Below, piece after piece: positions 3,394 through 32,915 of a DNA stretch of 64,000 nucleotides; position 1 is the first letter of the stretch, and each line of letters begins with the position of its first letter. The position numbers and the translations under genes were made by a program. The stretch covers positions 6,336-70,335 of the forward strand of contig CAZDXC010000001.1 in assembly GCA_964509675.1 (NCBI GenBank), written 5' to 3'. This DNA comes from Candidatus Woesearchaeota archaeon (GTDB lineage Archaea > Nanobdellota > Nanobdellia > Pacearchaeales > GW2011-AR1). The notes beneath the pieces are model-generated. The model was not told where the DNA came from and did not search any database. It worked only from the letters and a program-made list of their open reading frames with translations.

Positions 3394-3770
3394 GTAAGTT
3401 GGGTAGTTAACTTTCGGGATTCAATCCTTGAATGGATAAGTGATAAAATTATAATCGCTGAGTTCTGAGGAAGGTCCGCCCACCCACAACTTTTGTTTGT
3501 GACAAAGTCATTCATGAAAATGAACCATTGTGAAATGGAGCTCTGTTACAGAAACGACACAGCTTTCACTGAGCTATGAAATTTGCATTGAGCTTAGAAG
3601 TGAAGGATTTGATGAAACGAGCATCTTGACTGGTGCAAGGTCGTGTCTCTGAATTCGACGAGGTTTTCACCTTCGGCGAAAAGGGACCAAAAGAACCGCA
3701 TAGTTGAATGTTAACACGTTCTGTTCTTGCAAAGAGAAGAACGACAAAAGGTGGCCTATTCCCAACTTAC
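3394..3770 (+). ncRNA. rnpB: archaeal RNase P RNA
   Basis: P1 GTAAGTTGGG/CCCAACTTAC; conserved GAGGAAGGTCCGCCCACC, ACAGAAACGACAC, TGAAACG...GGTGCAAG, CCGCATAGTTGAATG and ACAAAAGGTGGCCTAT. Confidence 0.9.
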
Positions 3771-20094: not shown

Positions 20095-20231
20095 TGGACC
20101 TGTCGGGAGTCGAACCCGAATCTCATCCGTTCTCGGCGATAAGTTCCGCCAATTGCCCTATACGGGTTGACCGTCAAGGGTGGAACCCTTACGCGTGCAA
20201 GGGACGTATTCTACCATTGGACTACAGGCCC
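20095..20231 (-). tRNA. tRNA-Ala (TGC) with 66-nt intron at 37/38 (intron 20130-20195)
   Basis: Acceptor GGGCCTG/CAGGTCC, anticodon stem CGTCC/GGATG. BHB: CTTG pairs with intron CGAG, bulges CAC and AAC, h' GCG/CGC. Confidence 0.93.
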
Positions 20232-29906: not shown

Positions 29907-30200
29907 TCAAAATTTTTTTGATTGCAAAGCCCTAAGGCTTTTCAAAGTTCCAGAGACTCTTTTAACTTCTATCTTTTTTGGCCAAACACATAATGCTGCT
30001 CTCACATGGTTCAGAGTTTCGCGGTTTATGCATATTATTGCGGAATCTTTATTTTCCTTAATCCATTCCAAACCTGTCTTTGACATGCCTAAAACCCCTA
30101 TAAAATCTAAAATTGCTTTCTCTACATTTTTCCTTAGTTCTTTTCCTTCTACCAGCAGATATCTCCTATTTTCCCTCATTGATGGTTTGAGTGATTTCAT
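29907..30200 (-). CDS. rnp2: RNase P protein Pop5/Rpp14
   Basis: KPSMRE.RRYL...G..G...GIICINRE.L.HVRAAL...VSGTLK; in the conserved position upstream of psmA. Confidence 0.85.
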   Translation of the reverse strand: MKSLKPSMRENRRYLLVEGKELRKNVEKAILDFIGVLGMSKTGLEWIKENKDSAIICINRETLNHVRAALCVWPKKIEVKRVSGTLKSLRALQSKKF

Positions 30201-31047
30201 GATACAAATTATCCAAAGGACTTTTTATATTTATCAGATTTGGAGAAGCCATGTGAACATAAATTAATGAAGTTTCTGGAGATTTATGCCCAAGCATTGA
30301 TTGAACATTTGCGATATCATAACCATTTTCAATTAAGTGTGTTGCAAAACTATGTCTTAATGTATGCGGATGAATTTCCTTCCAATTTTTCAAGTGCGCC
30401 TCCTTTGAGGCATTTCTAATTATTTTTTGAATGCTTCTAACCGAGTATTTTTTTGTTTCTGTTGCTTTTAAATAAAAAATCATCTTCATTTAAACTTTCT
30501 AATTCAATTAAATTTATTATTTTTTCTTTGACAATCTTTGATAAGACTATTAGTCTATCTTTTCCTCCTTTTCCATTCCGCACATAACCATAATTTTTGT
30601 TTAATTCCAAGTCTTTAATTTTAATATTTAATAATTCAGAAACCCTCAACCCACTTCCATAAAGCAACTCAATCATCAACCTATGCTTCCAATTAGCAAT
30701 AGCATTTAATAATCTCTTAATTTCTTCTTTATTTAAGACAACTGGGAGTTTTTTTGGTGTTTTTGAGCATTTAATATCAATCCACATTTTTTTTTCCTTA
30801 AAACATTTTCAAATAAAAATTTAATTGCCATATGATAAGTATTCATTGTGTTTCCTGATAAATTTCTGTAAGAAAGATATTCTAAAAACAAGCAAACATC
30901 TTTTTTTGAGATGTATCTTAAATCTTTTTTAGACCAATTCAGGAACTTGTGAATGCAATGAAGATATGTGTTAACTGTTCTTGGAGATAGTCTTCTGCGC
31001 CGGCATTCTTTTATTATCTTTGAATCCAAATTTGTTGGAATCCCCAT
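30166..31047 (-). pseudogene. tyrosine recombinase (integron-integrase-like, SAM-like N-domain) split by two compensating frameshifts
   Basis: Three ORF pieces join into about 293 aa: LSPRTVNTY, KLPVVL, LLYGSGLRVSE, GKGGKDR, HTLRHSFATHL, LGH, TSLIY. Slips at A9 (30787-30795) and A7 (30448-30454). Confidence 0.92.
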
Positions 31048-31143
31048 AATACCAAAATTAATTAACAGTTTAAATAAATGCCTTGAAACTTTGTAATAAA
31101 AACAAAAAAGTTTGATACTGAATAAAAAACTGGGACTTTCAGC

Positions 31144-31192
31144 CTTTTAACCCACCAAATTTAAAAGAGTTCGTTAAAAGTCTGTTAGTTTC
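31144..31192 (+). other. putative primary attachment site (attI-like) of the cassette array
   Basis: AAAAGTCTG/TTAGTTTC is the degenerate first junction; CTTTTAAC (31144-31151) / GTTAAAAG (31173-31180) is an inverted pair just upstream. Confidence 0.55.
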
Positions 31193-31207
31193 AATAAGCG
31201 GGCGGGC

Positions 31208-31567
31208 TCACTGCTTTAATTTGTGCAATTCATCCACAGAAATAAAATCATCTGCTAAACAATCTAATTCTGGTTGGTTTGTTTTTTCGAGAAAATAGAT
31301 TTTTTTACCCACACCTTTTGCATATCCAATTTCAATCTTAACAGAATTGCCGAAATAACCTGTTGGATTTACTACCAAAACTGATTTTGATTTGTCTATT
31401 TTTTCAAAATGATCTGCTACCAGTTTTGGAACCATATCTGGAGTTTCCAATTCTTTAGGTAAATCCATTACAGGCAAAAGGTGTGGAATATCTAATTCTT
31501 TCAGAATCTTAGCTACTTCTTCTATTTTCTCTTTAAATTTAATACTTGCACTTATACAAACAACCAT
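31208..31567 (-). CDS. cassette 1: nucleoside deoxyribosyltransferase/deoxyribohydrolase-like protein
   Basis: HFEKIDKSKSVLVVN..GYFGNSVKIEIGYA...GKKI matches the NDT-fold pattern. Confidence 0.6.
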   Translation of the reverse strand: MVVCISASIKFKEKIEEVAKILKELDIPHLLPVMDLPKELETPDMVPKLVADHFEKIDKSKSVLVVNPTGYFGNSVKIEIGYAKGVGKKIYFLEKTNQPELDCLADDFISVDELHKLKQ

Positions 31568-31711
31568 AATAAAATATGAATTGCATAATTATTAATAAAT
31601 TTATCGCCCGCCCGCTTACTCGAGATTTTTCCCTTCGGGAACATTGCATTAAAATCTCGTCCTCATTTCATTCGGAGAAACTAACAGGGGTTAAACTCAA
31701 TCATAGAAAAA

Positions 31712-31975
31712 TTATTGAGGAGATAAATGTACCTCAAGATTATCTTTGTGTATTGCAAGGTTTAGAGATTCTCTCTCACCCGCTTTTTTTTCATCAACTC
31801 TTTTAACTTCTAGAGTTGCTTCCAAACCTCTCCCTGGTTCAACTCCCAAACTTTCGACTTCAAAAATAGCGGGTTGACCATCTTCACTTTGCCAACCATA
31901 GGCAAAATATTTCCCTTGCAATCCTCCGTCCAAGATATAATCTTGTATTGTTTTATCTCCTTTTGTGTATTCCAT
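31712..31975 (-). CDS. cassette 2: hypothetical protein
   Basis: 87 aa; stop codon lies inside the cassette inverted repeat. Confidence 0.65.
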   Translation of the reverse strand: MEYTKGDKTIQDYILDGGLQGKYFAYGWQSEDGQPAIFEVESLGVEPGRGLEATLEVKRVDEKKAGERESLNLAIHKDNLEVHLSPQ

Positions 31976-32147
31976 TTTTATCTCAAATATATTACAAAAT
32001 GGAAAAAGATTGTCATATTTAAAGATATGTGTTATTTAAAATAATTTTTCTATGACTTCTCCCTTCGGTCGACCACGTTGCACTCTCACTCCACTTCGTT
32101 CCGTTCGGGGAGTTTAACAGGGGTTAGTAGAAATAATTTTTAGAGGC

Positions 32148-32414
32148 TCAATGTTTATTTAAAAAATACGCAATAATTACAGATGCTGCTCCAAATAAAA
32201 AGACTATATTTGATATTATTATTGGATAATTCATTATAGAAATGCCATATATTAACCATATTGATATTCCAACCGCAAAAAATAAATAAGTTATTAATGA
32301 AACATCTTTTGCACTTTTGCGTTTGAAAATTTTATAGGTTTGAGTAAAATATCCAAAACTCATCATGGTACCAAATATAGTTGTAATTATTGCTAATGCA
32401 TCCATATAATTCAA
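32148..32414 (-). CDS. cassette 3: SemiSWEET/PQ-loop family transporter
   Basis: 3 TM; Q.YKIFKRKSAKDVSL, GI.IWLIYG, PIIISN. Confidence 0.85.
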   Translation of the reverse strand: MNYMDALAIITTIFGTMMSFGYFTQTYKIFKRKSAKDVSLITYLFFAVGISIWLIYGISIMNYPIIISNIVFLFGAASVIIAYFLNKH

Positions 32415-32915
32415 TTAATCTTTATTATTTATTAATTTATCGCCTCTAAAAATTACTCTTCGCCAGCCCTTCGGAACGTTGCACTCTGGCTCGGTTTTTT
32501 CTACGAAAAAACTCTACTAACAGGGGTTATACGATTTTCTTCCAAATTTTCTTGGCAGAAAACTTCGTATAACAAAAAAATTGTTGGTATCAATTACATA
32601 TAATATTTATGAAACTTTCTGATAAAATAATACAGATTTCATAAATCCCAATTATTGATCCTAAATTAAATTCTATAACAGAAATATCTTGATTATCCTA
32701 TTGTTAACCCAAATTTAAATAGTATTTCTGAGTCAAAATATTCAGAAAGTTTTTCTAATTTTAATTTCTAAAACCTTTTTAAACTATTCTTTCCAATTAA
32801 ATTTATAAAAGAGATGAATTTGAGGTTAAGATGATTCGGATAAATAGACGAGCAAAGCGAGGCAATTTTCTCCTTACGAACTTTAGTTCATTATCTCGTC
32901 GAATTCAATAACACG

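Follow-up and report, generated by a model that had tools for sequence, protein, structure and literature searches.

Why is each gene of a short archaeal cassette array enclosed by an inverted repeat that differs from those of its neighbours, next to a hairpin-forming segment that is common to all of them? The question arises in a 64-kb stretch (64,000 nt; hereafter the window) of contig CAZDXC010000001.1 from a Candidatus Woesearchaeota archaeon (GCA_964509675.1), in which positions 31184–32591 form a three-cassette, integron-like array adjoining a frameshifted XerA-like tyrosine recombinase gene (30166–31047). Judging from sequence and modelled folds, repeat and segment on balance probably belong to an extended attC-like recombination site, structure-specific and folded from a single strand, of a Xer-type cassette system.

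The three inverted repeats described in the first-pass annotation are all perfect, with 100% complementary arms: TAAGCGGGCGGGC (31195–31207 / 31606–31618, 13 nt), TCATAGAAAAATTA (31701–31716 / 32040–32055) and TAATTTTTAGAGGC (32134–32147 / 32442–32455, 14 nt); the second had been given as 14 bp and measures 16. One arm of each abuts or overlaps the stop codon of the enclosed minus-strand open reading frame (ORF; Table 1), as had also been noted. These repeats, which we call the clamp, are the inner part of a longer pairing. Beyond the clamp, each extends by AAT/ACT, with an A.C mismatch, to a second cassette-specific pair of 9 bp beside the core: GTTAGTTTC at 31184 with GAAACTAAC at 31677, GTTAAACTC at 31690 with GAGTTTAAC at 32110, and GTTAGTAGA at 32123 with TCTACTAAC at 32513. 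These pairs behave like the R' and R'' boxes of integrons, in that each cassette opens with a box matching the one with which it closes, which places the cassette boundaries within ..TAAC-AGGG-G|TTA... Each window cassette starts as G|TTAnnnnnAAT and ends as nnnnnTAAC. From the outside in, its two ends pair through the 9-bp R box, an invariant A.C mismatch (the 11th pair; G.T on the other strand) and a clamp of 15–17 bp, directly contiguous with R'; along the strand, R'(9)-AAT-clamp pairs with clamp-ACT-module-R'', the module being the shared hairpin-forming segment.

The sequence TAACAGGGGTTA, present in exactly three copies in the 64 kb and previously regarded simply as a core, is really part of a dif-like 11-6-11 junction that joins the R'' arm of one cassette to the R' arm of the next. 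Consecutive cassettes meet at 11 nt-CAGGGG-11 nt (..TAA-CAGGGG-TTA..), and this dif-site layout of 11-nt inverted arms, a 6-nt centre and TAA/TTA borders is found at 31674–31701, 32107–32134 and 32510–32537, the CAGGGG centre being identical and in the same orientation in all three. Only AGGG stands between R'' and R' at the two internal junctions, which have no L box.

The module occupies ~55 nt, in one strand only and exactly between R box and clamp, so that four helices meet without linker bases. It consists of two hairpins, P1, which encloses the invariant CCCTTCGG..(A)ACGTTGCACT, and then P2, and folding predicts a four-way junction of clamp, P1, P2 and R box. The shared motif reported earlier, CCCTTCGG-N(1-6)-ACRTTGCAYT, indeed occurs exactly three times in the 64 kb and in none of 100 shuffles. 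Folded whole as single-stranded DNA (ssDNA), the cassettes are predicted to close via R box and clamp, with z-scores of −5 to −10 (−7.6, −5.0 and −10.1 for cassettes 1–3). The branched junction that had been envisaged for cassette DNA or RNA is thus upheld by predicted folds for ssDNA; a role for RNA is unlikely in the window because all ORFs run opposite to the module and an AT-rich stretch, likely a promoter, lies inside the clamp.

Relatives were collected by two pattern scans, together yielding 240 fetched loci. The first, of genome contigs with 17 specified bases, was permissive, and ~100 of its 120 loci are chance matches in GC-rich bacteria; the second applied a stricter pattern to metagenomes. 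Once chance matches are set aside, the module is found in many low-GC contigs, from metagenome-assembled genomes (MAGs) labelled Woesearchaeota, Pacearchaeota and Nanoarchaeota and also Patescibacteria, Saccharibacteria and some Gammaproteobacteria. The same module types were observed in bacteria-labelled MAGs (loci L008, L009, L010, L037 and L070; Gammaproteobacteria, Patescibacteria, Saccharibacteria, Uhrbacteria) and in DPANN-labelled ones (L014, L041, L042, L045 and L074), which implies either movement of cassettes across domains or unreliable binning. Locus L105 has the classical layout of recombinase, attI and then cassettes on the other strand, each arranged as R' / AAT-clamp / ORF / clamp-ACT / module / R'' and followed by an L''-variable hairpin-L' and the next R'. 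This R''-L''-loop-L'-R' attC layout is seen in L105-type relatives and at the terminal window site (32513–32591), not at the two internal window junctions. The L-type hairpin of the terminal site (GTTATACGA..TTCCAAATTT..TCGTATAAC, stem 32526–34 / 32565–73, fold z = −4.1 / −4.6) is homologous to the L''-loop-L' part of the relatives' sites. Full-size sites show TTGCA twice in unpaired loops, in the module and again after R'', the second copy lying at a fixed 20–25 nt past R'' in 50 of 67 such sites, against a background of 9%.

Junctions without an L box (R''-4 nt-R') were also observed in L133, L235 and L041, and minimal L hairpins (GGATCC, GCGATCGC, GGAACTTCC) in L110, L056, L233 and L127. 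Since L-less and mini-L junctions recur in other arrays, loss of L''-loop-L' happens repeatedly; it could proceed via recombination between the GTTA of L'' and the GTTA of R'. The exact core AACAGGGGTT was considered as a family-wide feature and set aside, relatives having a spacer of AAG, AGC or AGG and then an L box.

Across these loci, a clamp run of at least 11 is present in 74 of the 116 modules with an identifiable R pair (64%), compared with 2.4% of 575 permuted cassette pairs; prevalence is ~76% once chance matches are removed, ~18 of the 42 modules that fail the clamp test being chance matches or artefacts and most others clamps with extra mismatches. Among 72 distinct cassettes, positions 1–15 after R' are 75–100% Watson–Crick paired and pairing is at background beyond ~16, while position 2 is A.C (G.T on the complementary strand) in 69. 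Clamp length peaks at 15–17 and the flanks at the clamp ends are conserved, C|TA on the left side and AC|G on the right; P1 occurs in 20 distinct complementary arm pairs. Applied to 59 in-silico circular junctions, RNAalifold predicted clamp, P1 and R box independently, with compensatory changes in 21 of 26 pairs. The proposal that unrelated stem sequences preserve their pairing is borne out accordingly, and the covariation and motif conservation in other arrays that the first-pass annotation had suggested checking are found in related metagenome loci. Pair counting gave 93.6% of cells paired against 58.5% in shuffled alignments, and the covariation score was 0.79 against 0.17 (0/500 shuffles reach 0.79), partners slid out of register scoring at most 0.20. 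Because MAFFT misaligned type-B modules at the left end of alignment A1, the clamp statistics were also computed by script in a fixed register.

In the window the recombinase gene is divergent from the array, which begins at 31184, with an attI-like region in between; by tblastn, relatives with 37–72% identity lie beside an array in ~20 loci, nearly always divergent from it. The intact L105 relative (271 aa) scores 233 bits against a cutoff of 220 with NCBIfam NF040815 (recomb_XerA_Arch, XerA / integron integrase), which the window fragments match too. The integron-integrase model TIGR02249 matches the window pieces and the L105 relative over model positions 2–178 and 240–315 only, the first stretch being 5–179 for the window gene; the L105 enzyme aligns with the VchIntIA structure 2a3v in two pieces, skipping ~residues 213–239 (the IntI-specific insertion), and with Pyrococcus XerA 4a8e end to end. 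The split matches to the integron integrases and the continuous match to XerA therefore describe a Xer-type enzyme that is related to IntI but lacks the defining domain of integron integrases. VchIntIA is the best PDB match of the recombinase, whose C-terminus (..SPL(D)) is IntI-like. Seventeen array-linked relatives align over 258–274 aa with no insertion, lengths that leave no room for one. The layout is that of Xer enzymes, a core-binding plus a catalytic domain and no arm-binding domain, and the IntI-specific domain around patch III is absent from the window fragments, from L105 and from the array-linked relatives.

Two frameshifts at homopolymers (plus-strand T9 at 30787–30795 and T7 at 30448–30454) split the window recombinase into three ORFs. 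The housekeeping genes examined near it (27.6–36 kb) are intact, and the frameshifts look like real decay or slippage-prone tracts, not a general assembly error.

On the reading that we favour, a cassette site would fold as a single strand, much as integron attC and the attP hairpin of CTX phage do. The clamp would zip the cassette ends together and bring the two crossover points (G|TTA) to the foot of a single hairpin spanning the cassette; it would stabilise the AT-rich 9-bp R box and compensate for the L box absent from the window's internal junctions and for the absent IntI domain. The module would be an architectural or accessory element, either a protein-binding loop or a junction former. 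The single-strandedness, the strand used and the role of the module are what we infer, and the crossover is tentatively placed at G|TTA by analogy and by the point at which cassette-specific sequence begins. Several considerations weigh against this scheme. Recombination, folding strand and single-strandedness all derive from sequence and predicted folding, and the window junctions would also function as plain dif-like sites in double-stranded DNA, a setting in which the clamp serves no evident purpose. Strand asymmetry is weak, the two kinds of wobble being balanced in number (12 GT vs 13 AC in clamps, 6 vs 5 in P1), and the complementary strand is more stable by 0.37 kcal/mol only; we accordingly discarded wobble asymmetry as a marker of the folding strand, or of RNA versus DNA, as uninformative save for the single invariant A.C. 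The covariation alignment was pre-selected for clamps of at least 11, with junctions joined artificially by concatenation. With the local recombinase frameshifted, the array may be inactive. Finally, the sharing of clamps among unrelated genes and the hairpin-like coding sequences described below are superfluous to the scheme and hint at an additional process.

The clamp had been taken as each gene's own. In other loci, however, identical clamps flank unrelated proteins in cassettes of differing length: AATAAGCGGGCGRGC accompanies 3 protein families and AATCGTCGTGT 6, and AATTCGGGGCTCGCC is combined with two types of module. A single protein family is also found in different shells, by which we mean the R box, clamp and module surrounding the gene, and is oriented one way in some and the other way in others. 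Immediately inward of the clamp, 68% of cassettes carry a second perfect repeat of 9–17 bp, compared with 6.5% of controls (31224–31233 / 31576–31585 in cassette 1, 32169–80 / 32382–93 in cassette 3), which often pairs the 5' untranslated region (UTR) or the first codons, and sometimes start-codon sequence, with the last codons. In L105, a radical-SAM cassette gene was observed to begin with 14 nt (ATGATGAAAATAAA) that are the exact reverse complement of 14 nt in its last codons (2956–2969 / 3745–3758), and the hairpin appears to shape the termini of this protein. Once R box, module and clamp are removed, the window interiors are still far more self-complementary than shuffles (z = −6.4, −6.5 and −2.3), and 19 stripped cassette interiors have a median z of −3.2 against −0.6 in 22 control segments (p = 0.001). 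The coding sequence of ORF2, in cassette 2, forms a nested hairpin (31719–27 / 31952–60, 31735–43 / 31937–45 and 31752–60 / 31913–21). Its single homologue found (70% identity, L241 98–358) lies on a 916-nt contig, tail to tail with a glyoxalase/Ble-like gene 23 nt away, and no module or clamp is visible around it in that contig. The coding sequence folds with z = −6.1 in the window and z = −0.65, random-like, in L241; it is thus the cassette copy that has the hairpin character, and not the protein family as such. A wider picture that takes in these features is possible, if doubtful: a widespread cassette system of DPANN archaea and bacteria resembling the candidate phyla radiation, standing between Xer/dif and integrons, in which the gene lies inside the recombination hairpin, a reusable shell of dif-like arm, clamp and four-way-junction module captures unrelated genes in its loop, and the whole cassette is then driven or selected towards a hairpin.

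The same features can be read as the footprint of cassette genesis or of mutation, with the pairing a by-product that recombination itself does not need. Either R box, clamp and module would form a reusable hairpin shell that receives genes in its loop, or hairpin-templated (quasi-palindrome) correction in ssDNA would progressively make both ends and interior complementary. Such a footprint would account for the recurrence of one clamp with unrelated ORFs and differing cassette lengths, for the second repeat layer and for the self-complementary interiors, including the contrast between ORF2 and its homologue. It fits poorly with a clamp that looks selected, its length fixed at 15–17, its flanks conserved and its mismatch invariant, and with the compensatory changes within clamp types (L131 vs L135, L090 vs L133). 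No empty shell was found among the loci, and the module interrupts the palindrome in a way that simple template switching would not preserve; on this evidence we consider a mere footprint unlikely.

An element acting in RNA is rather improbable. The module would then be a structured RNA motif with UUCG/UACG-type tetraloops, and the clamp would pair the ends of the cassette mRNA for processing, stability or translational insulation. Loops of the C(TTCG)G and C(TACG)G kind characterise stable RNA hairpins, P1 and P2 covary, and in 49 of 72 cassettes the module runs in the same direction as the longest ORF, which would put the module in the 3' UTR. The complement of UNCG loops is, however, an equally stable DNA C-GNA-G mini-hairpin, and the ORF lies on the other strand in the remaining 23 cassettes, the three window ones among them. 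In the window, the TATA-like AT-rich stretch between clamp and ATG makes it probable that transcription of the gene leaves out the clamp arm. The module-sense strand has no G.U over A.C bias, the invariant mismatch there being A.C, and no Rfam family matches: Rfam scans gave no hit overlapping the modules at E ≤ 10 in the window or E ≤ 5 in L105. Least probable of the alternatives is a plain double-stranded Xer/dif-type arrangement, comparable to integrative mobile elements exploiting Xer (IMEX) or to xrs cassettes stacked at a dif-like site, with the repeats as invertible switches or bidirectional insulators. The canonical 11-6-11 junctions with identical, directly oriented CAGGGG centres speak for it, as do the XerA score of the recombinase and the mixed ORF orientation (49:23), which inversion between repeats would give. 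It leaves unexplained the cassette-specific complementarity of variable arm positions and clamp, and the sites of full-size relatives are attC-like R''-L''..L'-R' hairpins with an unequal unpaired spacer. An invertible switch was rejected, no cassette family occurring in both orientations within the same shell among the loci compared. A miniature inverted-repeat transposable element or other transposon was rejected too: terminal inverted repeats are present, but AGGG is not duplicated at the array's outer ends (GTCT on the left, AAAA on the right), and no transposase was found among the window ORFs in the test for such elements or insertion sequences.

Table 1. Features of the cassette array and recombinase gene, in window coordinates.
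Feature	Positions	Strand	Remarks
XerA-like / IntI-related tyrosine recombinase gene	30166–31047	−	Pfam Phage_int_SAM_4 and Phage_integrase
attI-like region	31048–31183	+	between recombinase start and first cassette; ends ..TTCGTTAAAAGTCT|GTTAGTTTC
Cassette 1 R' box GTTAGTTTC	31184–31192	+	perfect complement of R'' GAAACTAAC at 31677–31685
Cassette 1 left clamp arm, AAT+AAGCGGGCGGGC	31193–31207	+	
Cassette 1 ORF, 119 aa	31208–31567	−	weak similarity to nucleoside 2-deoxyribosyltransferase
Cassette 1 right clamp arm, GCCCGCCCGCTT+ACT	31606–31620	+	
Module 1	31621–31676	+	P1 stem 31621–29 / 31651–59 around TCCCTTCGGGA and ACATTGCATT; then P2 hairpin
Junction 1, dif-like 11-6-11: GGAGAAACTAA-CAGGGG-TTAAACTCAAT	31674–31701	+	cassette 1 R'' (31677–85), AGGG, cassette 2 R' (31690–98), AAT
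Cassette 2 left clamp arm AATCATAGAAAAATTATT	31699–31716	+	overlaps ORF2 stop codon
Cassette 2 ORF (ORF2), 87 aa	31712–31975	−	orphan
Cassette 2 right clamp arm, AATAATTTTTCTATGA+CT	32040–32057	+	
Module 2 (type B)	32058–32109	+	outer stem CTCCC..GGGAG, CCCTTCGGTCGACCACGTTGCACT
Junction 2, dif-like	32107–32134	+	R'' GAGTTTAAC 32110–18, AGGG, R' GTTAGTAGA 32123–31, AAT
Cassette 3 left clamp arm AATAATTTTTAGAGGC	32132–32147	+	
Cassette 3 ORF, 88 aa	32148–32414	−	MtN3/PQ-loop (semiSWEET-like) membrane protein
Cassette 3 right clamp arm, GCCTCTAAAAATTA+CT	32442–32457	+	
Module 3	32458–32512	+	P1 GCCAG/CTGGC around CCCTTCGGAACGTTGCACT; P2 GTTTTTTC-TAC-GAAAAAAC
Terminal full-size attC-like site	32513–32591	+	R'' TCTACTAAC (32513–21), AGGG, L-type hairpin, A-rich spacer, candidate R' GTTGGTATC (32583–91)

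The three window ORFs, all on the strand opposite to the module, have AT-rich upstream regions inside the cassette. An ATTATT(A/T)AT(A/T)AATTTATCGCC sequence lies beside the right clamp arm in both cassettes 1 and 3 (31588–31608 and 32424–32444); read on the coding strand (GGCGATAAATT..), it is likely a shared TATA-like promoter inside the clamp. The junction CGTTAAAAGTCT|GTTA of the attI-like region is also present in L137, and related attI ends, CGTATAnAAACNA|GTTA, occur in L105, L126, L151 and L215. The attI-like region further contains CCCACCAAATTT (31151–31162), similar to the CCACCCAAATT motif of full-size sites; this CCACC(C)AAATT / TTCCAAATTT motif was observed there, in the terminal hairpin site (32541–32550) and, in most full-size sites (L105, L090, L074 etc.), at a set position within the variable loop, and may represent a further accessory element. 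The host archaeon is AT-rich: archaeal rRNA (16S and 23S) and RNase P RNA are encoded in the window, and the cassette locus adjoins genes for proteasome, exosome and SBDS. The 23S rRNA match (16301–19588) is ~300 nt longer than the model, which may reflect an insertion or intron, and the tRNA in the 16S–23S spacer (20095–20231) spans 137 nt and is thus probably intron-bearing.

Previous work provides the reference points. The archaeal integrons of Ghaly et al. (2022; PMC9668308) comprise six IntI genes with the additional domain, their attC sites having been identified by standard tools, and Smyshlyaev et al. (PMC8138268) describe the IntI insertion as "not fully conserved" in an integron-like subgroup. 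A dif site is built from two 11-nt inverted arms and a 6-nt spacer, with cleavage at the spacer ends (PMC8371274; archaeal XerA/dif), and has a conserved ATAA-centre-TTAT motif (ATAA-CR-TTAT; PMC11705084, on the xrs cassettes / pdif modules of Acinetobacter plasmids). In the literature searched, including PMC9668308 and its supplements, we found no description of the clamp, the module, cassette-wide hairpins or Xer-type integrases linked to arrays.

The locus bears on the origin of integron cassettes and on the evolution of attC sites and IntI from Xer/dif. Its sites can be read both as dif-like double-stranded and as attC-like folded sites, they are linked to a Xer-like enzyme without the IntI insertion, and an additional, strongly covarying structure joins one end of each cassette to the other. 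Should recombination be determined by clamp and module, these would constitute a new class of structure-specific recombination site; if shared shells and palindromic coding sequences reflect capture, cassette genesis would become directly testable. A gene inside the hairpin of a reusable shell would offer a concrete route for cassette birth and a picture of the attC ancestor. Current integron finders probably score such arrays as integrase-less attC clusters or miss them.

Compared with integrons, the likenesses are extensive. A tyrosine recombinase gene diverges from an array of mostly single-gene cassettes, with an attI-like region beside it in the window, where the attI-like end is common to L137, and the same layout in ~20 loci; the putative crossover lies at G|TT of a GTTRRRY-like R' box; R' at the cassette start matches R'' (RYYYAAC-like) at its end; site sequences differ while pairing is kept; and L105-type relatives have R''-L''-variable hairpin-L'-R' sites with unequal unpaired spacers. 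The differences are equally marked. The recombinase here lacks the IntI-defining insertion, the R box is 9 bp and runs into a 15–17-bp clamp that lies outside classical attC, clamp and R'' are separated by a conserved module of two hairpins, and an L box is missing altogether from the window's internal junctions (R''-AGGG-R'). Moreover, one third of the ORFs, including all three in the window, are inverted, unlike the mostly co-oriented and promoterless cassettes of integrons, which are read from Pc, and whole cassettes are quasi-palindromic, coding sequence included.

With Xer/dif systems, the array shares a recombinase that aligns with XerA from end to end, 11-nt inverted arms around a 6-nt centre with TAA / TTA flanks, and genes flanked by such sites; the right arms TTATATTCAAT and TTAGTTTCAAT resemble what we take to be the E. 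coli XerD arm, TTATGTTAAAT. It differs from pdif modules, whose sites are mostly inverted and may have differing central regions, in the direct orientation and identical centres of its junctions, and from Xer/dif cassettes in arms that vary in sequence yet are complementary within a cassette, in a dedicated recombinase gene linked to the array, and in a clamp and module without counterpart, the accessory sequences of cer/psi being a loose positional analogue. IMEX integration of the CTX-phage type uses a folded single-stranded attP hairpin on which XerCD acts. The principle proposed here would be the same, a Xer-type enzyme acting on a site formed by intrastrand pairing of two inverted dif-like halves; in place of phage genomes there are single-gene cassettes in arrays, with the cargo enclosed and a predicted four-way junction. 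The system would thus work like an integron or a Xer cassette system, yet its recombinase lacks the very domain by which integron integrases are defined.

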